Source: Patescibacteria group bacterium (GTDB lineage Bacteria; Patescibacteriota; Saccharimonadia; Saccharimonadales; CAIOMD01). From it: a stretch of 35,042 nucleotides of DNA. This document shows, piece after piece, positions 4,248-28,751 of this stretch. Position 1 is the stretch's first letter. Every line of letters starts with the position of its first letter. Where the stretch lies: assembly GCA_030917025.1 (NCBI GenBank), contig JAUPVN010000072.1, forward strand, positions 1-35,042, read 5' to 3'. The position numbers were made by a program, and so were the translations under genes. Below the pieces are notes generated by a model. The model saw only the letters and a list, made by a program, of their open reading frames with translations, searched no databases and was not told the origin of the DNA.

Positions 4248-7070
4248 TTATTGCTTTGGGGGTGTTTTTAAGGGCAAAAATACGTTAAAGGTGCTGCCTT
4301 TATTTTGCTCTGAAACAAACCAAATGTTACCGCCGCTATAATTTACAATACTTTGTAGTATATATAGCCCCAAGCCGGTACCGTCTGTGTCTATAGTTTT
4401 GGCGTTTTCTGCCCTAAACATTTTAGAGAATATGTGCTTTTGTTGGTTAACCGGTATACCGTAGCCGTTATCTTTAACAGATATTAACACTCCATCTTGC
4501 GGTATTTTATAGCCATCTACAACGTTTTTGCCTGAAACACTACTAACATCTAACCTAATTGTGCCCTTGCTTGGAGTGTATTTTACAGCGTTTGAAAGCA
4601 GGTTTTGATATATCATTTCTAGGTATTTTTGGTCGAACTCTATGCTTGGTAAGTCTTTTGTAAAAGTTACTACAAGGTTTTGCTGTTTTTCTTTTATTTT
4701 TGGTGTTAGTTCATTAATGATTTGTTTAGAAATTTGTTCTAGGTTAAGTACCTGCGTTTTTAAGACAAAAGTGCCAAGTTCTAGGCGTGATACATTTAAT
4801 AGATCATCTACCAGTATAGACATTCTTTTGTTGGCTAGGTAGATTTCGTTTAAATATTGGGTTTGAGATTTGTTTAGTTTGCTTTTTTTATCGCTTAATA
4901 ATATTTCTGTATACCAATTTATAGATGAAAGAGGTGTGCGCAGCTGGTGAGAAGCCAAAGATACAAATTCTGATTTGGCTTGATCTATTTCTTGTTCTTT
5001 AGATATATCTCTAAAAGAACCATACATAATTTCTGGCTGGCCATTTGGCAACCAAGACATTATTTTGCCGTGGTCTTGAACCCATATCCATGTACCATTT
5101 TTATGTTTAAGCCGGTATTTTGCTTTATAAAAGCTAGAGGTATCTTTTATATGATTATTTAATGCATCTTGGTATACGGGCAAGTCATCTGGGTGTATTA
5201 GTTGCTGAATTTTACTAGAATTTACGGGCCCTAGTTCTGCAAGTGTGTAGCCAATAATATTCGCCCAACGTTCATTTATGGTAACTTTATTTGTAATTAT
5301 GTTTAATTCCCACGCCCCAAGATCTGTTCCTTGTATAATGTTTTCTATTTTTTGCTTAGATTTTTCTAATGACATTTCTGCCTCTACGATATCTGTAATG
5401 TTTTCTTCGCTTGCTAAGAAACCTATTATCTTTTTTTGTGAATTTTTAATTGGAGATATTCTGGCCTTAACATAATACACTTCACCCATTTTGTTTCTGT
5501 TGGCAAGTTGGGTATTAATTACATGGCCCTTTTGAGCGTTATCCCATAGGTTTTTGTAAAAATCGTAATCCATTAAACCACCCCAAAGGCGTGGAGATTG
5601 GCCAAGCATTTGGTTAATAGGATAGCCAGTGTTTTGAGCCGCAGCATTATTTGCAAATAAAACGGTGCCGTTAATATCTGTTATTACAATGTGGTTTGGG
5701 CTATCGCTAAAAGATTTAAGTAAAACGTCAAAAGCGCTAATGTTAGATTCTATTGTTTTTTTAGATGTTTGTGTTAATTTAGACATTGCAAAAAATATTA
5801 ACAAAACAACTATAGAATATAGGCTAAATATAATTGGCGAAACAATAGTTTGGCCAAAAATAGTATTAGAATCATTATTTGCAAAAAGTAAAAAGCTAAA
5901 GGCAATTAATATGTATATTAAGCTATTAATTGTGGCTAGTTTTCTGCTAAAGAATAAATACATTAAAGCAACTGGTATTAATAACCAAGGCTCTGCAACC
6001 GTGTTGTTTACATCGTAATATTGGTAGGCTAGCATGGTAACCGCTAGAGCGTTAATAGAAATAAAAACAAGCGCATAGTATTTTTTAGATACTAAATGAG
6101 TAAACAGTATTATTAGCTGAAGTAATAAGTAAAAAATAAGTACCAAGTTGTAATTTGTAGTTAAACTTATGTTTAATACAAAATTTTCTATAAATAATAC
6201 TAAAGAAACACCAAAAATACTAAGTATTAAAAAGTATTTAAAATATTGCATTTTAACTTTATCAAAAAAGTTAGCGCTAAATTGATCTATAGATATTTGC
6301 TTACTTTGCTTATTAAATTTTGATAAGTAGTTTGTTAAGTTAAGTATCTGTTTTTTGTCTGTATTGTTAGGATAAAATTGTTCAAAAACAAAGTTTTTGG
6401 AGCTGTAGCCAGTATCTAACAGAATATTATTTGCGTTTTGTACATAATTTTTTGGTCCGCTAATAAGAATTTTACTGTTTATATTTTTTGGTATGTGGCT
6501 ACTTTTTAATTGTTCGTGGTATACACTTACGGTAATATTTTTATTGTTTTGCTCTAGTTGCTTTAGCTCTTTAACGTAAAGAGTTTCTTTGTACCTTAGG
6601 TTGTAAATTATATAATAATGTTTGTTGGGGTCTGAGTTTTCTTTTAAGATACTTAAAAAGGGCGCTATACCAACCCCCCCCCCCGCTAACATTATTATAT
6701 TGTTATCTGTAAAATTAGATGTTACAAAAGTTGTGCCAAGAGGGCCATAAATTTTTACTTTGTCTCCGGCTTTAAGGCCCAGAAGTATATGTTTATAATG
6801 ACTTTTAGATTTTCTGAGTAGTATAGATATGCTTGTATTGTTTTTGGGGTTACTAATAATAGAAAAAGCTCTCCTATCTATTTCTGGAGAGCTTTTTAAC
6901 TGATTTAATGCTAACCATATGTATTGACCTGCCTTAAACTGCATAGGAGCATTAAGGCCAAATTCTATTTCGTAAGCATCATCACCTAAAGAAGTGATAT
7001 TTTTAAGAGTTGCAGTAAACTCTGTGTTTTTGGATTTATCAGCACAGCTGTTATATTTTTTTGGTTCCAA
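4248..7070 (-). CDS. Multidomain sensor histidine kinase: FNR-like flavin/NAD(P)-binding domain, about 6 TM helices, 2 PAS domains, HisKA, HATPase_c
   Basis: The N-terminal roughly 230 aa carry RAFSI (the RxYS-type FAD motif), GPLG, and LAGGGVGIAPF (the GGxGxxP NAD(P) motif). Six hydrophobic helices follow at about residues 285-460. Two PAS-like segments precede the H-box SHQLRTPL, and N/G-boxes (NAVKYT, DNGYGIP, GTGLGL) complete the kinase. The start is apparently TTG at 7070. Confidence 0.85.
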   Translation of the reverse strand: MEPKKYNSCADKSKNTEFTATLKNITSLGDDAYEIEFGLNAPMQFKAGQYIWLALNQLKSSPEIDRRAFSIISNPKNNTSISILLRKSKSHYKHILLGLKAGDKVKIYGPLGTTFVTSNFTDNNIIMLAGGGVGIAPFLSILKENSDPNKHYYIIYNLRYKETLYVKELKQLEQNNKNITVSVYHEQLKSSHIPKNINSKILISGPKNYVQNANNILLDTGYSSKNFVFEQFYPNNTDKKQILNLTNYLSKFNKQSKQISIDQFSANFFDKVKMQYFKYFLILSIFGVSLVLFIENFVLNISLTTNYNLVLIFYLLLQLIILFTHLVSKKYYALVFISINALAVTMLAYQYYDVNNTVAEPWLLIPVALMYLFFSRKLATINSLIYILIAFSFLLFANNDSNTIFGQTIVSPIIFSLYSIVVLLIFFAMSKLTQTSKKTIESNISAFDVLLKSFSDSPNHIVITDINGTVLFANNAAAQNTGYPINQMLGQSPRLWGGLMDYDFYKNLWDNAQKGHVINTQLANRNKMGEVYYVKARISPIKNSQKKIIGFLASEENITDIVEAEMSLEKSKQKIENIIQGTDLGAWELNIITNKVTINERWANIIGYTLAELGPVNSSKIQQLIHPDDLPVYQDALNNHIKDTSSFYKAKYRLKHKNGTWIWVQDHGKIMSWLPNGQPEIMYGSFRDISKEQEIDQAKSEFVSLASHQLRTPLSSINWYTEILLSDKKSKLNKSQTQYLNEIYLANKRMSILVDDLLNVSRLELGTFVLKTQVLNLEQISKQIINELTPKIKEKQQNLVVTFTKDLPSIEFDQKYLEMIYQNLLSNAVKYTPSKGTIRLDVSSVSGKNVVDGYKIPQDGVLISVKDNGYGIPVNQQKHIFSKMFRAENAKTIDTDGTGLGLYILQSIVNYSGGNIWFVSEQNKGSTFNVFLPLKTPPKQ
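6674..6684. repeat. 11-nt C homopolymer on the plus strand (G11 on the coding strand) inside the kinase ORF
   Basis: Counted directly: caaCCCCCCCCCCCgct. On the minus strand it reads GCG GGG GGG GGG GTT GGT, encoding A-G-G-G-V-G. Confidence 0.95.
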
Positions 7071-7129: not shown

Positions 7130-7594
7130 TTATCTAGTTACGGTAATTGTTTCGCCGTTTTCTGCATCTGGGGCTGCTACGGTTATTCTATTATTGGCAC
7201 TTCTAGAAATTGTATAACCTGCGCCATTAGCAGATGAACCTGTTGGATCTACTGGTATGGATGTTAAGTAGGTTTCATTTGTTGTAAGAACGCTAAGATC
7301 TACTAAGCCTGTGCATGTGGCACCAGTTTTACATATTTCTCCTGGGGTGCCTGCTGTAAGTGCAGAAACGCTAGCAGGTAATGTTCCGTTATTATCTATA
7401 GAATATTGATAAACCGCATTTAGAATTGTTGTAACATCGCTTGAGCGTTGTGCATTTTTACTTTCTGATAGCTGCTTACTTGGGTTAATGGCAAAAATAA
7501 CTATTCCTGCCAAAATTGCAATTATAGCAATTACTAGTAGTATTTCTATTAGCGTAAAGCCAGAATTCTTTTTAGTTAATTTTTTTATAATCAT
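7130..7594 (-). CDS. pilA: Type IV major pilin (prepilin with class III signal peptide)
   Basis: The sequence MIIKKLTKKNSG|FTLIEILLVIAIIAILAGIV has the canonical G|FTLIE cleavage/methylation motif with Glu+5. The ORF is 154 aa and has a C-terminal Cys pair (CKTGATC) typical of the pilin D-region. An AGGAGA Shine-Dalgarno lies upstream. It is the last pilin gene in the operon and is preceded by a 65-nt gap. Confidence 0.8.
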   Translation of the reverse strand: MIIKKLTKKNSGFTLIEILLVIAIIAILAGIVIFAINPSKQLSESKNAQRSSDVTTILNAVYQYSIDNNGTLPASVSALTAGTPGEICKTGATCTGLVDLSVLTTNETYLTSIPVDPTGSSANGAGYTISRSANNRITVAAPDAENGETITVTR

Positions 7595-7659
7595 TTTGTC
7601 TCCTATTTTATATAATGGTTATGCTTATAGATTACTCTAAAATATACATAATATGCAAA

Positions 7660-8049
7660 TTAAAAACTATTTACTTGCTGCCAATTGGTTATAAGTATTT
7701 GGGGGCTAAGCTGACCAATGTTTATTTGGAGTCTTTTTGTGGTATTGTTTACGGTTGCCCAAACTTGGACTGTTCTTGTTTGCCCAGAGTTATCTACTAT
7801 AGTATATGAGCAGTTTTGGCCATTGATAGTTGTATTAAAATTTCCGGTTAGGGCATTGTTAGCTTTAATTTCTGCTAAAGACGTTTCTGCACAGCTATCT
7901 ACCAGGGCCTTAGCCTTAGCAGAATCACTAAAATTGCCACTAATTTGCAGGCTTTCTGTACCTTTTAAAATAAGTGAGCTAGCTACCGATGCACTAACTG
8001 CTGCAATTATTAAGACCGTTATTAAAAGTACTGCTCCTTGTTGTTTCAT
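7660..8049 (-). CDS. PilX/ComGG-like pilus-associated protein (hydrophobic N-terminus, no G|FTLIE motif)
   Basis: The N-terminus MKQQGAVLLITVLIIAAVSASVASS is a single hydrophobic segment. The ORF is 129 aa and overlaps the upstream minor pilin gene by 4 nt. Its position and size match PilX_N/ComGG-type components. Confidence 0.5.
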   Translation of the reverse strand: MKQQGAVLLITVLIIAAVSASVASSLILKGTESLQISGNFSDSAKAKALVDSCAETSLAEIKANNALTGNFNTTINGQNCSYTIVDNSGQTRTVQVWATVNNTTKRLQINIGQLSPQILITNWQQVNSF

Positions 8050-8546
8050 AATCTTAAGCTACTCCCACCGTAAAATGTTTTAGAATAATTATAAGATTGC
8101 TTGTTTGAACTATTAATGTAATTTAAGGTAAAAGAATAAGAAATATTGCCAGTTGTGTTTGGCCGGCTTAGGTTTGCAAATTCTAAGTTATTTATTTGTA
8201 TTTTATTATTGTGCATTGGTTGTGGTGAATTTGCCCCCCGAGTTAAATATAGGGTATTTGAGCTTACATTATAAATTGTGGGGTTTAGCGTAGGGTTTAT
8301 ATTTTGTAAGCTTAGGCTGGGCCCAACGTTACCCTGTGTTGGTGAATTGATTGCAGAAGATGATTGGATGCTTTTGTTGATGTTGTCTATAATTATTTCG
8401 CCCTGCTGGTTAACTTCGTTAATAACTTGGTTTTTTATTTGAGATTGAGTTACAAAATAAAATAAACCTATGGCAGAAGCCAAAATAAAGGGTACTATGG
8501 CAATGTATAGTAAAGTTTCTATGAGTGTAAAGCCTTTGTTGTTCAT
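8046..8546 (-). CDS. Minor (pseudo)pilin with prepilin-type N-terminal cleavage/methylation domain
   Basis: The N-terminus is MNNKG|FTLIETLLYIAIVPF. The ORF is 166 aa and lies within the pilus operon. Confidence 0.75.
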   Translation of the reverse strand: MNNKGFTLIETLLYIAIVPFILASAIGLFYFVTQSQIKNQVINEVNQQGEIIIDNINKSIQSSSAINSPTQGNVGPSLSLQNINPTLNPTIYNVSSNTLYLTRGANSPQPMHNNKIQINNLEFANLSRPNTTGNISYSFTLNYINSSNKQSYNYSKTFYGGSSLRL

Positions 8547-8549
8547 AAT

Positions 8550-9986
8550 TTATTGTGGTTTTAATATTAACATTTCTTGCGTGGTGGGATCTCCAACTAT
8601 AACGGCTCTGTTTAAGCTACTAGAGTAGGCCACTCCAGCGTAGGTATTTGCGGTAGGAGTGTTGTATGTGCCAAAAATAACCGGTGCAGAAGTGTTGGAT
8701 ATGTTAATTGTTTGAAATTCTGCCACATTACCGCTATTTGCTAAAAATAATACATCGGGGCTTTGAGCAATGTTTAAAGCTATATCATTTATGATTCCAC
8801 CATTGCCAATAGACACATTACCTAGTGCAGATGGAGATAGGGGGTTAGTTATGTCATATATGTAAAGTAAGTTAGATTGCCCAATAAATAAATTATTGTT
8901 GTTATGAGATATTGTTAGGGCGTTATTGGTGCCCGGTAAATTAATGCTACTTGCAAGCGTTGGTGCCGCTGGGTTGCTAACATTAACTATTTTAACCTCT
9001 TGAGTGTCTGAGGAAGAAGATACATAGGCATAATTGGGTATAACGGTTACCTCATAGGCTAAGCCGGTTAAATTGGTTGGCCCAAGATTTACTATACCAG
9101 AAAGCGTTGGTGCCGCTGGATTGGTAATGTTTATAACCGCTAATTGGCTGGTAGAAGCACTTATGGCAAGATAGACATAATTGCCTAATTTATATACGCC
9201 TCTGGCATCGTTATTACCACTGTTATTAAAGCTCCCCGTAAGCGTTGATGCCGCTGGGTTAGTTATGTTAATAATTTGTAATTCTTGCGTGTTAGAGCTA
9301 GAAGCTACGTATGCATATGAGCCGTCTATAAAAATGTTAGTTGGGTTGCCATTTAAAGATAAAGTCTGGACTAAGGTTGGGCTAGCAGGATTAGTAATAT
9401 TATAAACTAAGAAGTTTTGGGAGCCCCTGTTAATTACTACAAATGCGTAGTTACCGCTTATTTGGACCTTTAACCCGGCTTTTATATTTGGAAAATCAAC
9501 GGCTGAGTCTAGCCCTGGGTTACTCCAAGATAAATTAACTACTATATTAATATCGCGCCAGTTTGTTAGCCGCCCAACTAAATTAAACACACCCGTGCGT
9601 TGAAGATTTTGTTGCCAGTTAACGCTTATATTAACTTCTTTTGTTGTAGGGTTTACGGTACTTAATGTTACCGTTCTGGTAAAATTATTTTGCACGTCTG
9701 GAGTGTTGGGCACTAGCTGCCATTGGCCACTATTTTGCTGTAGGCCATATGCGCCATCTGCTAAGCTGCTAAAAGCCTGATAATTACTATCTTTAATATT
9801 TTTTACTGCTTCTAGACCTTGTTCTGCAATTTGGGTAGCCTGAGTTCTTTTGGCGCTAATGATTGAACTTTCTGTACCGTAAAAAATAGCCCCTACAATG
9901 CCAGATATCACAATTATTAGTAAGCTAGAAGCCAACAAAACTTCTATTAAAGTAAAGCCGCTACTGTTTGAAGATTTAGTTTTCAT
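8550..9986 (-). CDS. Minor pilin fused to an LVIVD-repeat beta-propeller (putative pilus-tip adhesin)
   Basis: The prepilin N-terminus is MKTKSSNSSG|FTLIEVLL, followed by a pilin-like domain of about 150 aa. Six to seven repeats of 45-50 aa follow, of the form gnYAYVasss..qeL.IiNItNPaaPTL.g. This pattern matches the LVIVD repeat family. Confidence 0.75.
   Translation of the reverse strand: MKTKSSNSSGFTLIEVLLASSLLIIVISGIVGAIFYGTESSIISAKRTQATQIAEQGLEAVKNIKDSNYQAFSSLADGAYGLQQNSGQWQLVPNTPDVQNNFTRTVTLSTVNPTTKEVNISVNWQQNLQRTGVFNLVGRLTNWRDINIVVNLSWSNPGLDSAVDFPNIKAGLKVQISGNYAFVVINRGSQNFLVYNITNPASPTLVQTLSLNGNPTNIFIDGSYAYVASSSNTQELQIINITNPAASTLTGSFNNSGNNDARGVYKLGNYVYLAISASTSQLAVINITNPAAPTLSGIVNLGPTNLTGLAYEVTVIPNYAYVSSSSDTQEVKIVNVSNPAAPTLASSINLPGTNNALTISHNNNNLFIGQSNLLYIYDITNPLSPSALGNVSIGNGGIINDIALNIAQSPDVLFLANSGNVAEFQTINISNTSAPVIFGTYNTPTANTYAGVAYSSSLNRAVIVGDPTTQEMLILKPQ
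8956..9257. repeat. DNA-level periodic repeat underlying the LVIVD blades
   Basis: AGCGTTGGTGCCGCTGG occurs at 8956-8972 and again at 9103-9119. A one-mismatch copy, AGCGTTGATGCCGCTGG, occurs at 9241-9257. All encode PAAPTL or PAASTL on the minus strand, with spacing of 147 and 138 nt. Confidence 0.85.
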
Positions 9987-10432
9987 TAGTAGTTTATTAC
10001 TCCGTTGCTACTTATATTTATAGTAAGATTTTGGCCAGATACATTAGATAATGTTACAGAACCAGGCACAACGGGCAAGCCAGTAACTTTTGCAAAAGAA
10101 AAATCGCTTAAGCCACTATAGGTTATATTTGGGGATATTTTAGATATTTGATCGTAAGATTGATCTCTGCTATTAAAATTATTACCTTTAAACAAAATTA
10201 TTTGTGATTGTTCTATTTTTACGCTCCAGGCGTCATCCTGGCTAGATAAGCGTGCTTTAATTTGTGCGTTTCTGGCATCGTTTACAAATGTAGAAACAGC
10301 AATATTTAGATCGTTTTTTGTTTGTGTGCTGCTATAAACAGATATAGATAAACCACTAAGCAAGGCAATTAAACTAATAACAAGCATTAACTCTATTAAA
10401 GTAAAGCCTTTATTGTTTTTTACGCATACCAT
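9986..10432 (-). CDS. Minor pilin, GspH/FimT-like prepilin
   Basis: The N-terminus is MVCVKNNKG|FTLIELMLVISLIALLSG. The ORF is 148 aa. Its stop overlaps the start of the next gene (TAATG at 9984-9988). Confidence 0.7.
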   Translation of the reverse strand: MVCVKNNKGFTLIELMLVISLIALLSGLSISVYSSTQTKNDLNIAVSTFVNDARNAQIKARLSSQDDAWSVKIEQSQIILFKGNNFNSRDQSYDQISKISPNITYSGLSDFSFAKVTGLPVVPGSVTLSNVSGQNLTINISSNGVINY

Positions 10433-11521
10433 TTATATATCGTTAAGATTACTTATAAGAGAATATATAGGTAAAATTATTGCTAACGCCAATACAACAA
10501 CAATTAGCCAAACGCTAATTAGTAGTATGGGCTCTAAAATTACCGAAAGATTTTTAGAGGTTGTGTCTACCTTTTCTTCGTATACTTTAGAGATTTGCAA
10601 AAATGATTTAGATAAATAGCCAGACTTTTCGCCCGTTGTGATTAAAGATCTTACTGTATTGGGCAATAATTTAGTTTTTTTATTTTTGGTGGATAGTAGA
10701 GTTTTAAAGCTTTCGCCCTGGGTTATTCCGTTTTCTAGGTATGAATACAGCTTTTTAAAAGCTCTATCGTTGGTTGATTCTTGCAAAGAGATAAAAACCA
10801 TTTCTATTGGTAGGCCGGCTTCTAGTAGAGTTCCGGCAATGTAACCCATTCGGGAAATTTCTATTTCTTTAACTAGTTTGTTAATGCCCGGGGCTTTTCT
10901 TATTATTTTAAAAACAAAATCACGAAATATTTTAACCCAAACTATTAAAATAAAAAATAGTAATGACATAACTAGGGTGAATATAAGTATTGTATATTTG
11001 TTATCTTGAATAAAATCTCCTAAGCTAATTAGGATTCTTGTTGGTAGGGGCAATTCTACGTTCATACCGCTAAATATAGTAGTTAGTCTTGGTAATATAA
11101 ACCAAGCAATAGTTAAGCCAACAACAATAGCAAGACCAAGTACCAAACTTGGGTAAAGCATGGCAGACTGTATGTGCGATTTAAACAGGCGATTTTTTTG
11201 GAGTTGTTTAGCCGCTAGATCTAGGTTTTCGCTTAATCTGCCGCTGTCTTCTCCACTTTTAATTAGTATTACCGTTGATACACTGTAAATACCACTTTTA
11301 TCTATTGCTTTCCAAAACGGTATGCCCTCTGATATTTGATTAATAATTTTTAAAATTGCTTTTTTAAGTTTTGGTGATTTTATATCATCTACAAAAGAAG
11401 ATAGGGCAGAATTTAAAGACGCCCCTGAGTCTACAAGCATGGCTAAATTTTCTAGTAATGTTTCGGCCTCTTTACCAAACCCAAATTTTTTTTTGCCAAT
11501 GATTTTGTCTTTGTTATTCAT
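10433..11521 (-). CDS. pilC: Type IV pilus platform protein (GspF/PilC family)
   Basis: The 362-aa ORF has two T2SS-F-like repeats separated by TM helices. Its coordinates directly abut pilB (11522) and the next pilin gene (10432). Confidence 0.88.
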   Translation of the reverse strand: MNNKDKIIGKKKFGFGKEAETLLENLAMLVDSGASLNSALSSFVDDIKSPKLKKAILKIINQISEGIPFWKAIDKSGIYSVSTVILIKSGEDSGRLSENLDLAAKQLQKNRLFKSHIQSAMLYPSLVLGLAIVVGLTIAWFILPRLTTIFSGMNVELPLPTRILISLGDFIQDNKYTILIFTLVMSLLFFILIVWVKIFRDFVFKIIRKAPGINKLVKEIEISRMGYIAGTLLEAGLPIEMVFISLQESTNDRAFKKLYSYLENGITQGESFKTLLSTKNKKTKLLPNTVRSLITTGEKSGYLSKSFLQISKVYEEKVDTTSKNLSVILEPILLISVWLIVVVLALAIILPIYSLISNLNDI

Positions 11522-13207
11522 TTAGGTTTTACTATTAAATATAGTTGGTACGGGTGATACTCTTAGTAGTTCTTCTATTGTAGTATAGCCTTGGCTAACT
11601 TTTTGGATACCGTCTTCAAAGAGGGTTTTACTGTTGGTTTTGTAGGCTACTTCCCATATTTCGTTTTTGGATGGTTTTTTAAGAATAAGTTCTTTTAGTT
11701 CGTCATTTAATACAATAAATTCGTAAATTCCTATTCTGCCCTTATAGCCGGTATTATTGCATATTTTGCAACCCTTACCTTTGTAGATATTAGTTTTTGA
11801 TTTGCTTAATAAGTTTTTAAGCAGGGTGGCAGATTGTTTGTCTAGATTATGATCTGCAGAAAGTGATTCTATGTTTAAGTCTGTGCTTATTCTGCAAGAT
11901 TGGCATAATTTTCTAAGTAAGCGCTGCGCAACAACAAGTTCTAGTGTAGATGCTAATAAAAATGGCTCTGTACCAAGTTCTAACAAGCGTGGGATTGCGG
12001 TTGCGGCATCGTTTGAGTGAAAAGTTGTTAGCATTAAATGGCCCGTTAAAGCTGCATTAACAGAAATTTCTGCTGTTGCTAGATCTCTTATTTCTCCTAC
12101 TAAAATTACGTCTGGGTCTTGTCTTACAATAGACCTTAAGCCCTCACTAAAAGTAAAATTTGTTTGTGGGTCTACCTGCATTTGGGCAATACCCGGAATA
12201 ACGTATTCTACTGGGTCTTCTATGGTGGTAATATTTATACCTCTGTTTTTAATAAATTTTATTAAAGAATACAGAGTTGTAGTTTTACCAGAGCCCGTAG
12301 GCCCTGTTACTACTATCATTCCAAAAGGTTTTTTACCTGCAGTTTCTATAATTTGTTTGTGTTCTTGGCTTAGGCCTAAATCGTTTAGGGTAAATTCTGC
12401 ATTATGTGATGTTAGTAACCGTATTACGATTTTTTCGCCGCTTACTGTTGGTGCAATTGAAATACGCATATCTATTGAGCCAGTGGATTCGTGATCAAAA
12501 TGTACAGAACCGTCTTGCACGGTGTTGTGTTCGTCTATTCTAAGACTAGCCATAACTTTTATTCTGTTGATTACATTTTGGTAAAGATTAGTATCTATGT
12601 TTCCGGCATCTTGTAGTACACCATCTACGCGGATTCTAATTGTTACACTATTTGGCTCTGGTTCAAAGTGAACATCAGATGCACGCATTGCAGCAGCATC
12701 AATTATTATGGCTTCTATAATATCTGGGGCTACTTTAGAGCCAGATTTAATAATTTCGTTAAATCGTGTATCTAATGATTCTCTATAATCTATAAGGGCT
12801 TCGTCTATTTCGGCCGGCAACGCGTAACGGAGCTCTATTTTACGATTGTTAAATATGGTTTTTAAACTGTCTTTTAAGTCTGGGTTATTTGGTTTATCTG
12901 TAGCAATTATAACCTTGCCCTTTTCTATTTGGTAAACAACTACTCTGTATTTTTGGGCAAATTCTTTTGGGACTAAGCTAATTTCTTGGGGGGTTGGTTG
13001 ATGAGCATTAAAATCAGCAATAGCAAGATTGTATTTTTCTGCTACAGCCATAGCAATAATATCTTCGCTAATTAGGTTATTTTCTTTTAAATAGTCTGTT
13101 ATATTAGTACGAGCTTTGCTACTTTCTTGCCACGCCTTAACTGCCTCATCTTTGCTAAGGTAGTTTTCGTTTACGAGTAGTTCTAGTAGTTCTTTTTCTT
13201 CTTGCAT
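11522..13207 (-). CDS. pilB: Type IV pilus assembly ATPase (GspE/PilB family) with N-terminal T2SSE_N domain
   Basis: It has Walker A GPTGSGKTT, Walker B/Asp box DVILVGEIRD and His box TGHLMLTTFH. A tetracysteine motif CQSC...CKIC is present. The ORF is 561 aa. Confidence 0.92.
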   Translation of the reverse strand: MQEEKELLELLVNENYLSKDEAVKAWQESSKARTNITDYLKENNLISEDIIAMAVAEKYNLAIADFNAHQPTPQEISLVPKEFAQKYRVVVYQIEKGKVIIATDKPNNPDLKDSLKTIFNNRKIELRYALPAEIDEALIDYRESLDTRFNEIIKSGSKVAPDIIEAIIIDAAAMRASDVHFEPEPNSVTIRIRVDGVLQDAGNIDTNLYQNVINRIKVMASLRIDEHNTVQDGSVHFDHESTGSIDMRISIAPTVSGEKIVIRLLTSHNAEFTLNDLGLSQEHKQIIETAGKKPFGMIVVTGPTGSGKTTTLYSLIKFIKNRGINITTIEDPVEYVIPGIAQMQVDPQTNFTFSEGLRSIVRQDPDVILVGEIRDLATAEISVNAALTGHLMLTTFHSNDAATAIPRLLELGTEPFLLASTLELVVAQRLLRKLCQSCRISTDLNIESLSADHNLDKQSATLLKNLLSKSKTNIYKGKGCKICNNTGYKGRIGIYEFIVLNDELKELILKKPSKNEIWEVAYKTNSKTLFEDGIQKVSQGYTTIEELLRVSPVPTIFNSKT

Positions 13208-13280: not shown

Positions 13281-13646
13281 TTAAATATACGTTTGAATTT
13301 TTAAGATTAGTTCTGCTAAAGATGTGTCTGATTTAATAAAAAAGTCTTTAACCCCAAAGTTGGTTGTTTTTATTTTATCTTCTTCTTGTGAAAGGTTGCT
13401 CATAACAATAACAGGTGTTTTATTTTTAGATATTTTCATATTTTGTAAAACGTTAAAACCATCTGATACGGGCATAATTAAGTCTAATAATAAAAGATCA
13501 TATTTATTATTTTTTAAGTATTGTATGGCCTGATCGCCATCGTTTGCAACCGTAACTACGTATCCAGCATTAGAGAGCTTAAGCTCCATGGCATGTGCTA
13601 GGGGTTTTTCGTCTTCTGCTATTAATATTTTTTTGCTAGGTTTCAC
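13281..13646 (-). CDS. Single-domain response regulator (CheY-like receiver only)
   Basis: The 121-aa ORF has the acidic pocket AEDE, the phospho-acceptor context LLLLDLIMP, and conserved S and K positions (VMSNL, FFIKS). There is no output domain. The start is apparently GTG at 13646. Confidence 0.9.
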   Translation of the reverse strand: MKPSKKILIAEDEKPLAHAMELKLSNAGYVVTVANDGDQAIQYLKNNKYDLLLLDLIMPVSDGFNVLQNMKISKNKTPVIVMSNLSQEEDKIKTTNFGVKDFFIKSDTSLAELILKIQTYI

Positions 13647-13793: not shown

Positions 13794-16040
13794 ATGAATA
13801 CATCTAAACATCTTGGTTGCAGCTACTGGTTTGAACTGTACTTGATGCAGGACATTTATAGCCAAGCAGACTGGCAAAAGACTATACTTTCTGTATCGCA
13901 ATATATTGGTTTTATGCGTAATTGGCAGTTGATTATGCGTGTAGAAAACAGCACTGTTAGGTATTTTGTTGGCGCAAATAGTGATTTAGGTATGCTGTCT
14001 AACAATTTACAAGGAGTGGTTTTAAGACCAATTGCCGCCAATATAGTATCGCCCCCTAAAAATCCTAAACATGAAGGTTTAATAAGGTTGGTTACCGGTG
14101 GTAGTGCGCTAGATTTAAGAGAAAAATACATTGTAAAACGTGGTAAAGAGCTTGATTGGATAGTATTTTCTATTAGAACTATTAATGTAGAAAAAGCTTA
14201 CTGCAAAGCATCTTTTTATTTTAAGCTTGCCAACAACAGCTATAGCATGGCAAAAAAATTATTAATCGTTCCGCCAAGTATGTTATTAAAGGTTGATTTT
14301 GTACAAAATACTAAGTACTTACGTAAAAAACAACCAAAATACTTAGATATTCAAAAATCTCTACATATTATGCGTAGCGATGAGGTTGGCGCACTATTTG
14401 AGGTTGACACATTCCCGTATTTACCAAAAAATTATTATTTGCCCCTAGAAAGTTATGATTTTGATAAACACTCATTTATTATTGGCGCTAGTGGTAGCGG
14501 AAAGTCTAAATTAATTGACTTATTTATTAACCAGTTATTGTCTGATAGTATGAACCGGCAATCTTACAGGGTAATTGTAATTGATCCACACGCTTCTTTA
14601 GAAGATGATTTAGATAGTATACAGGGCAGTAACGTTATTAGATTTAAGGGCAGCGATGATGGCGCAGAACTGTTTGCTGGGGCTGGTACGGATATCTCTG
14701 CCGCAACCGAACTTACGGGCACGTTATTTAAATCTTTAATGGCAGATCAGTTTAACCCCAAGTTAGAGCGCGTCATGCGCTTTAGCCTGTTTGTTTTAAT
14801 GACGGCTCAAGTAATGTCTTTAGATAATTTAAAACGTTTTGTAACAGATATAGAATATCGTAATGCTTTATTAGACCATGTTAAGGGCTTTGTACCTGAT
14901 AATATTGTTAATTTTTTTGGATCAGATTTTAACGAGCTTAGAACAAAACATTATACAGAGGCAATATCGCCAATAGTTGCATTGGTAGAAGAAATGCAAA
15001 TGCAGCCATCTTTGGGTGAACAAAACGATAACGCTGCTTCTTTGCAGCGCCTTATTAGTGATTCGCCACTAACCGTTTTTTCTTTAAATAAAGTTAGTAT
15101 GGGCGAAAAGGTAGTAAAAACTGTTGCTGGTTTGCTAATTCAGCAAATATTTTTGCTGGCACAGGCGCATAGCTTTAACCAAAAAGTTATTTTAATAGTA
15201 GATGAAGTATCTGTTGTGCAAAATCCTGCTTTAGCGCAAATATTAGCAGAGGCACGTAAATATAATTTATATGTATTCTTAACTCAGCAGTATTTTGGCC
15301 AGATAGAAAAGGGCTTGCAAGACGCAATTTTTACTAATGTTTCTAATTATTATGCCTTTAGGGTATCAGAAGAAGACGCAAGGGCACTTGAGGGTAATTT
15401 AACTATAGAGTTACCCAAAGAAACTTTGTTAGAGGGTAAAGAAATTGGTAATAAAGAACAAGAAATTAGAGTGAGGATATTAACATCGCTTAATAGCCGA
15501 GAGTGTTTATTACGTTTAAGTAAAGATGGCCAAATTTTGCCATGCGTTAAGGCCCGCACCATGGATTTTACGGCCCCCAAAAGAATGCAAAATGACGATT
15601 TGCGTAAGGCTGCAATGGAAGATTTGCCCCAAAAATTTAAAGAAAAAGTGCAAACTCAACATTCTTTAAATATGGTAGAAGATGTAAATAGTAAGCTTGA
15701 AAAGTTTGCGGGGGAATCTGGGCAAAAAACCGCTAATAATGTAGAACGGCCTGCGTTAAAGCCTAAAGCTCAAGAAATATCTCCAGAAAAGTTTACCCAG
15801 CTTGGGCATGTTGCTGCTCCTGCGTACTTAACTAAACCTGTTACGTCTTTTGATTCTGCAAAAATGGATTTAGTATCATTAAATTCAATTGGTCCTAGTA
15901 GTTTTAATAATGGCACAAATGTAATAGCAACACAAAACACTTCTGTTTTAAACAGTAATGGTAGCCAAAAAGCCCCAACCCTAGAAGAATTTTTATCGCA
16001 GCAATCAACAAATTTTAATATTAATGAAAGGGAAATCTAA
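13794..16040 (+). CDS. HerA/FtsK/VirD4-superfamily P-loop NTPase with an uncharacterised N-domain and a roughly 170-aa low-complexity C-terminal tail
   Basis: It has Walker [11 protein letters not shown] followed by [10 protein letters not shown] (HerA/VirB4-like DPHGEY context). Walker B is ILIVDEVS, followed by [13 protein letters not shown]. No N-terminal TM helices are visible. The exact subfamily cannot be assigned by eye. Confidence 0.6.
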
Positions 16041-23014: not shown

Positions 23015-23089
23015 TCGGGAGTAGCTCAATGGTGGAGCAAGAAGCTGTTAACTTCGAGGTTGCCGGTTCGAGTCCGGCCTCCCGAGCCA
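23015..23089 (+). tRNA. tRNA-Asn (anticodon GTT), CCA encoded
   Basis: The cloverleaf was folded by hand. Acceptor stem: TCGGGAG/CTCCCGA. D-stem: GCTC/GAGC. Anticodon loop: CTGTTAA, with GTT at 23047-23049. T-arm: GCCGG-TTCGAGT-CCGGC. Discriminator G is followed by CCA at 23087-23089. Confidence 0.93.
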
Positions 23090-23110: not shown

Positions 23111-23134
23111 GACCAGGTTCCTAGACCTGTCCCT
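23111..23134. repeat. Direct repeat copy 1 (GACCaGgTTC-CTAGACCTGTCCCT)
   Basis: The 14-nt perfect core CTAGACCTGTCCCT (23121-23134) recurs at 23297-23310. The flanks are also similar. Confidence 0.85.
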
Positions 23135-23286: not shown

Positions 23287-23310
23287 GACCCGTTCCCTAG
23301 ACCTGTCCCT
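23287..23310. repeat. Direct repeat copy 2 (GACCcGtTCCCTAGACCTGTCCCT)
   Basis: See copy 1. The two copies flank a roughly 150-nt segment holding the terminator and the tRNA-like fragment. Confidence 0.85.
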
Positions 23311-27467: not shown

Positions 27468-28751
27468 CTATCTATAGAACTCTAGTTCGCCATCCTTTAT
27501 TTGCAACATAGGACCCATGTTTGATGCTAAGAATGTTCTCTCACTATCCGTGCCGTCAGCAAGTACATATCGAGCATACTCAATGAATGGATTATCTAGT
27601 TTTTGATCGATTTTGTAGTGAGTAAGTATAGTTTTAGTTGTATAGAAGTGTTTGTCGACCCTTGCTCTAAGTTTTTCGGTTATTTTTATGTCCTCGTGAT
27701 GTTTCTCAATAAAACCCTGCATCAATTCACAAAGTCTTTCTTCATTCACATATTTCTCGGCACAGTTTGGGTCTTTACGTCTTGTGCAGTTGTAGTATAC
27801 GAATCTTTTTACGTCACCATTTTTTAGCGTCTTGAATTTGTCTTGTGCTGTGATATCTGCAGTACACCGTCCACACTTCAATAGTCCTCGGAAGGCGAAT
27901 GTCTTTGACCCCCACACACCCTTGTTTACACCTCTCGTTTCTTGCACTAGATCGAATAGCTCTTTAGATATAAGTGGTTTATGAGCACCTGTATACCATG
28001 GTGCATCAGGTGCTTCGGGATATTGAAATTTACCGTAGTAAAAGGACGTGCCGAGAATCACTAGTATTTGGCTCACACTAATTGGTTTGCCCGAACGGTT
28101 GGTGAAGCCTTGCTCATCAAGCCATGCTTTTATCCTGCGACCGCTCCAACGCTCATACCCAGCTTTTTGAAAAGCTTCGATAATTAGTTCCGATCTATCA
28201 GGGTCGAGGATTATGTCGTTAACACCTGCGAATGCTCGATTCATGTATCCAAGTGGTGCAACGCCTGGTCGCCAACCCATCTCGCATTTGTTTCTAATGC
28301 CTCGTTTGACGTTAATACTTTTGTTATCATTCTCAAGTTTGGCTTGCGAACAAAGAATCATTAGCAAGAACTTCTCATTCGGGTTATTTGTGAACGTCTG
28401 CGAGTAAGTACGGATATGTAGTAGCTTGCCTTGATCCATGAGGTCAACAACCGATCCAAGGTCGCCAGCATTCCTACTCAGTCGATCGGGTGCCCATGTG
28501 AGGACGGCATTATATTCTTCGCTTGCTAAGCCCTTAAGTAATTTGTTGTATACGGGTCTTTTGCCAGAATCTTTAGCAGAGTGACTCTCCTGAAGCTCGC
28601 AGACTATCTGCAACCCTTCACTTTCGGCTAGTGCTCTCATTTCGTTAAGTTGTGAGTCAATCGACATTGCCTGACGCTCGTCGCTCTCAGAGCTTTTACG
28701 AGCATACAGGCAATATCTTAATGTCGGTTGACTGTCCAGCATGGCAAGCAC
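27468..28751 (-). CDS. Large serine recombinase (resolvase catalytic domain, recombinase domain, zinc ribbon)
   Basis: The N-terminus YCLYARKSSESDERQAMSIDSQ carries the catalytic-Ser context. DRLSRN is present. The C-terminal CGRC...YYNCTRRKDPNC forms a Zn ribbon, and a coiled-coil-like tail follows. The start is GTG at 28751 or ATG at 28742. Confidence 0.88.
   Translation of the reverse strand: MLAMLDSQPTLRYCLYARKSSESDERQAMSIDSQLNEMRALAESEGLQIVCELQESHSAKDSGKRPVYNKLLKGLASEEYNAVLTWAPDRLSRNAGDLGSVVDLMDQGKLLHIRTYSQTFTNNPNEKFLLMILCSQAKLENDNKSINVKRGIRNKCEMGWRPGVAPLGYMNRAFAGVNDIILDPDRSELIIEAFQKAGYERWSGRRIKAWLDEQGFTNRSGKPISVSQILVILGTSFYYGKFQYPEAPDAPWYTGAHKPLISKELFDLVQETRGVNKGVWGSKTFAFRGLLKCGRCTADITAQDKFKTLKNGDVKRFVYYNCTRRKDPNCAEKYVNEERLCELMQGFIEKHHEDIKITEKLRARVDKHFYTTKTILTHYKIDQKLDNPFIEYARYVLADGTDSERTFLASNMGPMLQIKDGELEFYR

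Follow-up and report, generated by a model that had tools for sequence, protein, structure and literature searches.

A ferredoxin-NADP reductase-like module fused to a putative flavin-binding PAS domain in a family of Patescibacteria sensor proteins

The flavin-PAS redox sensors Aer, NifL and MmoS are textbook systems, and the identity of their physiological reductant is still debated. We describe here a family of bacterial proteins in which a module of the ferredoxin-NADP reductase (FNR) family is fused to a PAS domain of the NifL/MmoS/Aer type. The member at the centre of the analysis is a 940-residue sensor histidine kinase encoded on contig JAUPVN010000072.1 of CAIOMD01, a lineage of the Saccharimonadales within the Patescibacteria; the whole 35-kb stretch of DNA that was analysed is referred to as the window. 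Both the sensor type (NifL/MmoS/Aer) and the reductase type (SpNOX/Fre) are already known. What is new here is a reductase fused to a flavin-PAS kinase, an arrangement that appears to be uncharacterised.

The closest described sensors share much of this plan. NifL of Azotobacter vinelandii and MmoS of Methylococcus capsulatus likewise have a flavin-type PAS domain, then a second PAS domain and an H-domain/GHKL transmitter. However, neither has a fused reductase, the electron donor being a separate partner that is still debated, and their outputs are NifA and MmoR, whereas the family described here appears to signal to receivers that stand alone and shows linkage to pilus genes. E. coli Aer is also comparable: it is membrane-anchored, reads redox through a flavin adenine dinucleotide (FAD)-binding PAS domain on the cytoplasmic side and controls a motility apparatus via a kinase and a single-domain receiver. 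Unlike the window kinase, Aer signals through HAMP and CheA, and has neither an intrinsic HisKA domain nor a reductase module.

On the reductase side, the FNR superfamily (SpNOX, Fre, cytochrome b5 reductase, flavohemoglobin reductase, NqrF) has a common two-subdomain fold. The module in the window has the same fold, but lies at the N-terminus of a signalling protein, where other members are joined to a redox partner of the heme, Fe-S or membrane kind. The kinase has no ferric-reductase heme domain. In flavohemoglobin and the self-sufficient P450s an NAD(P)H-driven FNR module is covalently tied to a cofactor domain that needs electrons. The design is shared by analogy and not by homology, and the acceptor in the present family would be a sensory PAS flavin, with a signal rather than chemistry as the product.

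The FNR module and the first PAS domain

The kinase gene is a single uninterrupted open reading frame (Table 1). Its product consists of an FNR-like module, a MASE6-like block of six transmembrane (TM) helices, two PAS domains (PAS1 and PAS2), HisKA and HATPase_c. The six Pfam domains assigned (FAD_binding_6, NAD_binding_1, PAS_9, PAS_3, HisKA and HATPase_c) all scored above their gathering cut-offs. An earlier reading made from the letters of the window alone (the sequence-only reading) had proposed one 940-residue frame, with an FNR-like N-terminus bearing three signatures in order, two PAS-like regions, and the H-box and N and G boxes of a kinase. The analysis bears this out. The frame is intact; the PAS-like regions correspond to PAS_9 (residues 458-560) and PAS_3; and the boxes could be located (SHQLRTP at 707, N at 823, G1 at 867, F at 880 and G2 at 897). 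The kinase core is complete, and the gene product is a sensor kinase of the HisKA/HATPase_c type. PAS2 is an accessory, missing from many family members; P0007, for example, passes from PAS1 straight to the kinase.

A close ortholog is available for comparison. The locus L010, from a species-representative metagenome-assembled genome (MAG) labelled Candidatus Saccharibacteria, comes from the SRP286056 co-assembly and is syntenic with the window over approximately 8 kb, with a nucleotide identity of 93%. Its ortholog is intact, has 939 residues, is 95.6% identical to the window kinase and also begins with TTG; a single glycine is the sole gap between the two.

The N-terminus is a true member of the FNR family, in which a six-stranded beta-barrel precedes a Rossmann-like subdomain and all the cofactor motifs are retained. 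Its signatures are RAFSI at residues 67-71, GPLG at 109-112 and LAGGGVGIAPF at 128-138. Although the Pfam scores of the two subdomains are modest (FAD_binding_6, residues 20-114, 26.5 bits against a cut-off of 21.1; NAD_binding_1, residues 130-186, 25.6 bits against 22), independent lines of evidence support the assignment and place it well beyond chance. Searching the PDB with the N-terminal 260 residues (phmmer) gave the SpNOX dehydrogenase domain first (E 1.9e-11) and, after it, dozens of enzymes of the FNR family. AlphaFold models residues 20-230 with a predicted local distance difference test score (pLDDT) of ∼85-97, and the top Foldseek match to this model is again the SpNOX dehydrogenase domain, in its FAD-bound form (E 5e-16, TM-score 0.83 on the target, root mean square deviation 3.1 Å), with cytochrome b5 reductase, flavohemoglobin, NqrF and flavodoxin reductase coming after it.

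Conservation in the FNR module and PAS1 was read from an alignment of 22 sequences (the window protein and 21 relatives). In the FAD-binding barrel, G48, Y50, W52, R66-S70, S90 and G112 are invariant, including the flavin motif R67-A-F-S70, and G109-P-L-G112 is conserved. In the Rossmann subdomain, which carries the Gly-rich loop, an ISGP motif and the C-terminal aromatic motif FEQFYP, the conserved residues are G131, G132, G134, A136, P137, F138, G205, F229, E230, Y233 and P234. The C-terminal motif (FExxYP across the family) is almost invariant and adjoins the linker to the next domain. The RxFS, GPxG, GGxGxxP, xGP and C-terminal aromatic motifs of the superfamily are all present in the window module, which differs from the other members by one extra glycine in the NAD-binding loop.

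Within the family, conservation is highest in PAS1, which has a mean column identity of 60% against 32% for the whole FNR+PAS1 alignment. Nineteen of its columns are invariant, and the invariant motifs comprise NH.vITD, (T/S)PRLWGG, W509, N524 (in NRxK) and E555. When a PAS1 profile was compared with the PDB, the best match was MmoS PAS-A (5.9e-29), followed by NifL PAS1 (7.8e-20), LOV domains (∼1e-15) and Aer (1.6e-14).

The determinants of FAD binding in such domains have been described. Xing et al. 2023 traced FAD binding primarily to a Trp on the F-alpha helix, with Asn and/or His as secondary determinants; clusters 4, 9 and 14 of their classification form the NifL/MmoS/Aer clade, and the NifL cluster uses Trp and Asn (PMC10468136). 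In the Aer PAS structure W70 stacks on the adenine, and N85, H53 and R115 contact the flavin (PMC9668731). We mapped the Aer, NifL, MmoS and LOV positions onto PAS1 through HMMER alignments. W509, invariant in the 22 sequences, aligns with Aer W70, with the Trp of MmoS 'DMW' and with NifL W87. N524, also invariant, aligns with Aer N85; it stands in NRNK in the window protein, and the family consensus NRRKNG matches the NRRK(D/N)G of MmoS, NifL and Aer.

Two further flavin-facing positions are different. The position of Aer H53 and the LOV Cys is an invariant Pro (P493) in the family, and that of Aer R115, NifL H133 and a LOV Gln is an invariant Glu (E555), where MmoS has the pair His/Arg and NifL has Glu70/His133. 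A His of the H53 type, which occurs only in the Aer and AerC clusters, was sought in PAS1 and is absent, with Pro in its place. Because the NifL cluster also lacks this His, membership of a NifL-type cluster stays open to PAS1. Judged by these residues, PAS1 carries the published NifL-type FAD signature together with flavin-facing residues of its own, and we regard it as a putative FAD-binding domain. The sequence-only reading had contrasted the kinase with sensors of the PAS-flavin kind. That contrast does not hold: PAS1 is itself of the NifL/MmoS/Aer type, and the protein therefore probably has two flavin modules.

A LOV photosensor was also considered for PAS1 and rejected. The family has G(N/Q)(T/S)PRLWGG in place of the LOV motif GxNCRFLQ, the Cys being replaced by Pro and the Gln by Gly, and MmoS and NifL outscore LOV in the profile comparison.

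PAS domains of the same subfamily also occur apart from the fusion. Stand-alone proteins of 176-177 residues are encoded directly upstream of the FNR-kinase at L006:9416-9949 and L007:9403-9933. Each has a zinc-ribbon-like N-terminus (CxxC...CxxC) and a PAS domain that scores 107-115 bits against the PAS1 hidden Markov model (HMM), with the Trp and Asn kept.

A family across the Patescibacteria

How widespread is the fusion? With residues 1-450 as the query, a word-indexed search turned up no more than about 22 fusions. By contrast, a profile search with the FNR+PAS1 alignment (374 positions) against 1.84 billion cluster representatives was far more productive: among the 150 matches listed, ∼140 span the whole profile in one stretch at E <= 1e-97. 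At least 160 proteins, in at least 140 clusters at 50% identity, have the FNR-PAS1 unit across the Patescibacteria. Among the GTDB species representatives the full fusion is found in Saccharibacteria, Uhrbacteria, Woesebacteria, Amesbacteria, Nomurabacteria, Magasanikbacteria and Yanofskybacteria, and also in Ryanbacteria, Falkowbacteria, Peribacteria, Gracilibacteria, Levyibacteriota and Parcubacteria.

As judged from these sequences, the architecture is that of a sizeable Patescibacteria-specific family and not a singleton. The suggestion that it is unusual, made from the window alone, has to be given up, since so many proteins from many lineages of the candidate phyla radiation (CPR) share it. 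The accompanying suggestion that it might be undescribed has fared better: in the searchable, incomplete literature we found no description of an FNR-fused sensor kinase or of pilus regulation in CPR bacteria. The family sequences themselves are public and carry automatic domain annotation.

HMM-based classification placed the FNR module ahead of PAS1 in 162 of 179 sequences. Most of these fusions are soluble and have a kinase (101 of 162). A further 21 are soluble with a short coiled coil (GRELKMIELK) replacing the kinase, and 24 are soluble and short or truncated. The TM block is combined with a kinase in 11, the window protein among them, and with the coiled coil in five. In nearly all soluble members the linker from FNR to PAS1 is 12-40 residues long. 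The conserved core of the family is the FNR module plus the first PAS domain; the TM block, the second PAS domain and the output are variable.

The kinase-less branch accounts for 26 of the 162 fusions (P0002, P0003, P0004, P0008, P0012, P0018, P0160 and others). Its members end after PAS1, or sometimes after a further PAS domain, in a conserved C-terminal helix of ∼25 residues, LNKLMVGRELKMIELK, which would be the output element.

The same type of FNR module is found in other company. At L001:3049-5197 the neighbours of the gene for the TM-bearing P0011 encode a membrane protein resembling RnfD/NqrB and an FNR of this subfamily (135 bits) that stands by itself. Elsewhere, in P0023, P0028 and P0033, this FNR type is fused to the C-terminus of an RnfD/NqrB-like membrane domain (∼500 residues). 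These pairings hint at a lineage-specific membrane redox system.

Linked receivers and a possible redox relay

Stand-alone receivers follow the kinase gene in all seven of the relatives' contexts that were inspected. In the window the minus strand instead reads receiver, PilB, PilC, five small genes and kinase, so that the receiver heads a pilus cluster. It has the acidic pocket, phospho-Asp, Ser and Lys expected of a receiver, and it groups with a set of 'SNLSQEEDK' receivers, having 47% identity to the one beside the kinase in L006 and 43-48% to those beside PilB in L002 and L007. From these relationships, the receiver is likely to be the cognate response regulator of the FNR-kinase.

We surveyed linkage in 44 species-representative loci with the fusion, 30 of which include the kinase core. 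A receiver gene is directly adjacent in 17 of the 44, all of them among the 30 with the kinase core, and lies within 6-kb flanks in 27. PilB and PilC together are found within 6 kb in 10 of the 44 loci, compared with an estimated ∼1-2% for a random gene in a genome of ∼1 Mb. The Falkowbacteria locus L002 has the receiver-PilB-PilC-pilins-kinase order of the window plus a second receiver after the kinase; L007 has the kinase, four receivers, PilB, PilC and pilins; L006 has the kinase, a receiver and an MshEN protein; and other loci have the kinase with one or more receivers alone. At L008:12233-15789 the kinase and receiver are followed by genes for AhpC/Redoxin, DsbD, a thioredoxin-like protein, MsrB and MsrA, an oxidative-damage repair cluster that is consistent with an oxidant-related signal. 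Between the last pilin gene and the kinase gene of the window, a scan found no terminator-like site, and its promoter-like matches were not above chance.

In the mechanism that we propose, and to which we give even odds of being correct, the FNR module uses NAD(P)H to reduce the PAS flavin of its own polypeptide, and the kinase reports redox balance to a pilus-modulating receiver. From its intact motifs and fold, the FNR module would bind FAD and oxidise NAD(P)H, and would then hand electrons to the flavin of PAS1. Oxygen or another oxidant would re-oxidise this flavin, by analogy with NifL, MmoS and Aer, so that its redox state would reflect reducing power set against oxidant. The resulting conformation of PAS1 would set the autophosphorylation of His708. 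Conserved adjacency suggests that the phosphoryl group would pass to the receiver at 13281-13646. As this protein has no DNA-binding domain, it would act through protein contact, and gene linkage points to the PilB/MshEN motor encoded between receiver and kinase as the most likely partner. The Pil-Chp system and the Tax system of cyanobacteria offer precedents for a single-domain receiver acting on a pilus ATPase. In the TM-bearing members, the MASE6-like block between FNR and PAS1 would serve as a membrane anchor and may bring a second input.

Three lines of evidence support the proposed steps: FNR and PAS1 always co-occur, with a short linker in nearly all soluble members; they model as one unit; and the literature favours an NAD(P)H-coupled donor. 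A soluble FNR-PAS1 construct gave five concordant models with a predicted TM-score (pTM) of 0.84 and a mean pLDDT of 87.8. The only stretch of very low confidence is the invariant RLWG loop, as expected of a loop that depends on a cofactor or partner. PAS-FAD potentials are ∼-290 mV, so that quinones cannot reduce these sensors and an NAD(P)H-coupled system is expected; the FNR-family protein Fre has been proposed as the partner (PMC9668731).

To our knowledge, respiratory chains and quinones are missing from most Patescibacteria, a situation that would speak for a donor carried by the sensor itself. Reduction of NifL in vitro by NADH-linked flavoproteins has been reported.

Several observations weigh against the proposed relay. 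The pTM score is an indirect proxy only for an FNR-PAS1 interface. In the window protein ∼200 membrane-domain residues lie between FNR and PAS1, so direct contact is not assured even though both are cytoplasmic. The PAS1 pocket departs from known FAD-PAS sensors at the two flavin-facing positions P493 (for His/Cys) and E555 (for Arg or His), and the cofactor could therefore differ or be absent. The NAD-binding loop of the window protein has an extra Gly present in no relative, which could weaken nucleotide binding. Finally, the window has no receiver directly downstream of the kinase, unlike most relatives, and the pilus linkage is limited to about a quarter of the loci.

If the relay is correct, the fusions would form a 'Rosetta stone' family, one that would identify FNR/Fre-type reductases as the electron donors of NifL/Aer-type PAS-FAD sensors. 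We offer this wider reading as possible but as falling short of an even bet: a one-chain sensor running from NAD(P)H through the FAD of FNR and the FAD of PAS to oxygen, in bacteria that lack a respiratory chain, and steering the type IV pili (for host attachment or DNA uptake) of episymbiotic Patescibacteria. These bacteria have tiny genomes, and type IV pili are implicated in their association with hosts. The natural fusion makes the reductant question directly testable, both partners being present in one soluble polypeptide of ∼370 residues. If true, the reading would provide the first concrete sensory input for Patescibacteria two-component signalling, tied to type IV pili. With sensor, reductase and kinase in one chain, the protein would also offer synthetic biology a compact part that responds to NAD(P)H and O2.

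The main rival is that the FNR module is a pure ligand sensor that binds NAD(P)H or NAD(P)+, with or without FAD. A change at FExxYP would be relayed through PAS1 or the TM block, no electrons would reach PAS1, and PAS1 would be a mere transmitter or would sense something else. The nearly invariant FExxYP motif does abut the linker, the His/Arg pair seen in Aer and MmoS is missing from PAS1, and Rex is a precedent for sensing a nucleotide ratio without electron transfer (PMC8063818). Nevertheless, the Trp and Asn specific to FAD are invariant in PAS1, which clusters with FAD-PAS sensors; its 19 invariant columns point to a domain that binds a cofactor and not to a passive relay; and every catalytic FNR motif is kept, beyond those that bind the nucleotide. 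We consider this rival rather unlikely.

An improbable alternative concerns the window copy alone, as an altered or phase-variable family variant: its FNR module might be impaired by the extra Gly, or a poly-G tract might act as a slipped-strand on/off switch. The GGG of the NAD-binding loop is encoded by an uninterrupted run of 11 G (G11), the sole G/C homopolymer of at least eight bases in the window. The loop reads AGGGVGIAPF here against AGGVGIAPF, with no inserted Gly, in all 21 aligned relatives and in L010, so that a one-residue insertion unique among the 22 aligned sequences sits in the GxGxxP loop. The tract appears to have grown within this lineage, from G6 in L011 (a more distant Saccharibacteria relative) to G8 in L010 and G11 in the window, whereas the other family genes inspected have mixed Gly codons and G-runs of 2-5, mostly 2-3. 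The poly-G tract is lineage-specific, and G11 is a possible slipped-strand site. The sequence-only reading had singled it out as a possible frame-breaker. However, both G11 and G8 stay in frame, and the longer tract contributes one in-frame Gly. Furthermore, the remainder of the protein has 95.6% identity to the ortholog with G8 and retains all its motifs, and AlphaFold confidence holds through the loop (pLDDT 88-91).

Could the FNR module instead send NAD(P)H electrons into the six helices and on through the membrane, in the manner of NADPH oxidases (NOX) and ferric reductases? The nearest solved relative of the module is the SpNOX dehydrogenase domain, and a six-helix membrane block does exist. 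It consists of hydrophobic helices at ∼279-429 in the hydropathy profile, with segments rich in Lys and Arg before TM1, in the TM2/3 and TM4/5 loops and after TM6. As these segments occupy alternate loops, the predicted topology has both termini inside, which agrees with the earlier expectation that an even number of helices would place the FNR-like module and the kinase on the same cytoplasmic side. Yet the domain order is opposite to that in NOX, and Ferric_reduct (Pfam) has no match in the window protein or in the homologous blocks. No conserved His or Cys for heme ligation was found in the 16 homologous TM blocks, although a W-x3-P motif in TM4 is conserved across them; the window block has one His (H325). 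As no His is conserved, the block is very unlikely to be a heme conduit. Some 90% of the family, moreover, lacks the membrane block and still retains FNR-PAS1. Membership of the NOX/ferric-reductase (FRD) family was therefore rejected, the order being reversed with neither paired heme-ligating His nor Ferric_reduct, and we think an electron conduit of this kind very improbable.

A better likeness is to MASE6 (PF20966), an integral membrane domain of several helices with which signalling proteins begin; it matches 11 of the 16 homologous blocks, with E 5.2e-6 at best. The block of the window kinase itself has no match to MASE6 at E<=1, being too diverged for a direct match, and its homology to the matching blocks is through alignment. 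Unlike MASE6, the family block lies between two cytoplasmic sensory modules and not at the N-terminus. A homolog search with the TM-block alignment returned nothing, so the block could not be traced outside the family in that way. MASE3 was proposed by NCBIfam NF047874 and rejected: the match was far under the cut-off and was borne by the PAS/kinase part, whereas the homologous blocks give MASE6 in Pfam. The sequence-only reading had allowed for two kinds of coupling. The coupling of NAD(P)H/flavin redox state to phosphorylation stays the most plausible; electron transfer into the membrane is made unlikely by the mostly soluble family, the lack of a conserved His or Cys and the likeness to MASE6.

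That two or more genes were joined artificially, through a frameshift or a chimeric contig, can be dismissed: the long homopolymer within the gene and the early stop in P0001 would fit such an artefact, but the independent, 93%-identical assembly of L010 carries the intact ortholog with G8 in the same syntenic setting, differing in protein by the one-Gly gap only, P0151 (953 residues) has the full architecture of the window kinase, and the fusion recurs throughout the family. P0001 itself (306 residues, 88% identical) comes from a contig of 3.5 kb; its match to the kinase breaks off early within TM1, an unrelated tail follows, and it may be frameshifted or mis-assembled.

Features and surroundings of the window

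The coordinates of the kinase, its domains and the linked genes are collected in Table 1. Among the five small genes between PilC and the kinase, the one at 7660-8049 (minus strand) has no Pfam match.

Table 1. Positions of the kinase gene, its domains and the linked pilus and receiver genes in the window
Feature	Position	Strand	Residues	Evidence
Sensor histidine kinase, whole gene, TTG start	4248-7070	-	940 in all	Single uninterrupted open reading frame; Pfam domains; intact L010 ortholog
FNR-like FAD-binding beta-barrel (GQYxW and RRAFS motifs, GPxG at end)	6729-7022	-	~17-114	Pfam FAD_binding_6; invariant columns; pLDDT >90; Foldseek match to SpNOX dehydrogenase domain
G11 homopolymer on coding strand (C11 on plus strand), encoding GGG in NAD-binding loop	6674-6684	-		Sequence of the window; comparison with L010 (G8), L011 (G6) and other family genes
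FNR-like NAD(P)H-binding Rossmann subdomain	6369-6701	-	~124-234	Pfam NAD_binding_1; conserved residues; fold match
Six-helix membrane block, MASE6-like	5775-6248	-	~275-432	Hydropathy and positive-inside analysis; homologous block in 16 family members
PAS1, NifL/MmoS/Aer-type, putative FAD-binding	5388-5726	-	~449-561	Pfam PAS_9; PDB relatives; mapped FAD determinants; pLDDT 84-93
PAS2 (PAS_3)	5019-5285	-	~596-684	Pfam PAS_3, 92.9 bits
HisKA dimerisation/phospho-acceptor domain	4776-4979	-	698-765	Pfam HisKA, 58.3 bits; H-box SHQLRTPL, His708
HATPase_c catalytic domain	4266-4634	-	813-935	Pfam HATPase_c, 87.1 bits; N, G1, F and G2 boxes
Stand-alone receiver, head of pilus cluster	13281-13646	-	121 in all	Pfam Response_reg only
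PilB-type ATPase with MshEN N-domain	11522-13207	-		Pfam T2SSE and MshEN
PilC/T2SSF platform protein	10433-11521	-		Pfam T2SSF
Five small genes between PilC and kinase, four with prepilin N-methylation motifs, one of these with LVIVD repeats	7130-10432	-		Pfam N_methyl and LVIVD

Divergent from the receiver-PilB cluster, a VirD4/TrwB-like coupling ATPase is encoded on the plus strand (13794-16040). TraG-like and type IV secretion system (T4SS)-pilin genes are also found close to the pilus cluster of L002.

Further along the window, the segment 23000-30900 has a G+C content of 0.41-0.45, compared with ∼0.35 elsewhere, and starts beside a tRNA-Asn gene (23015-23089). It encodes a P-type ATPase, a DUF305 protein, a large serine recombinase (27468-28751), an ArsP-type permease and an ArsR regulator, and looks like an integrated metal-resistance element. 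No tRNA-derived direct repeats were found bounding the GC-rich segment. Just downstream of the tRNA-Asn gene there is a 24-nt direct repeat, whose two copies (23111-23134 and 23287-23310) are 88% identical and lie 176 nt apart.

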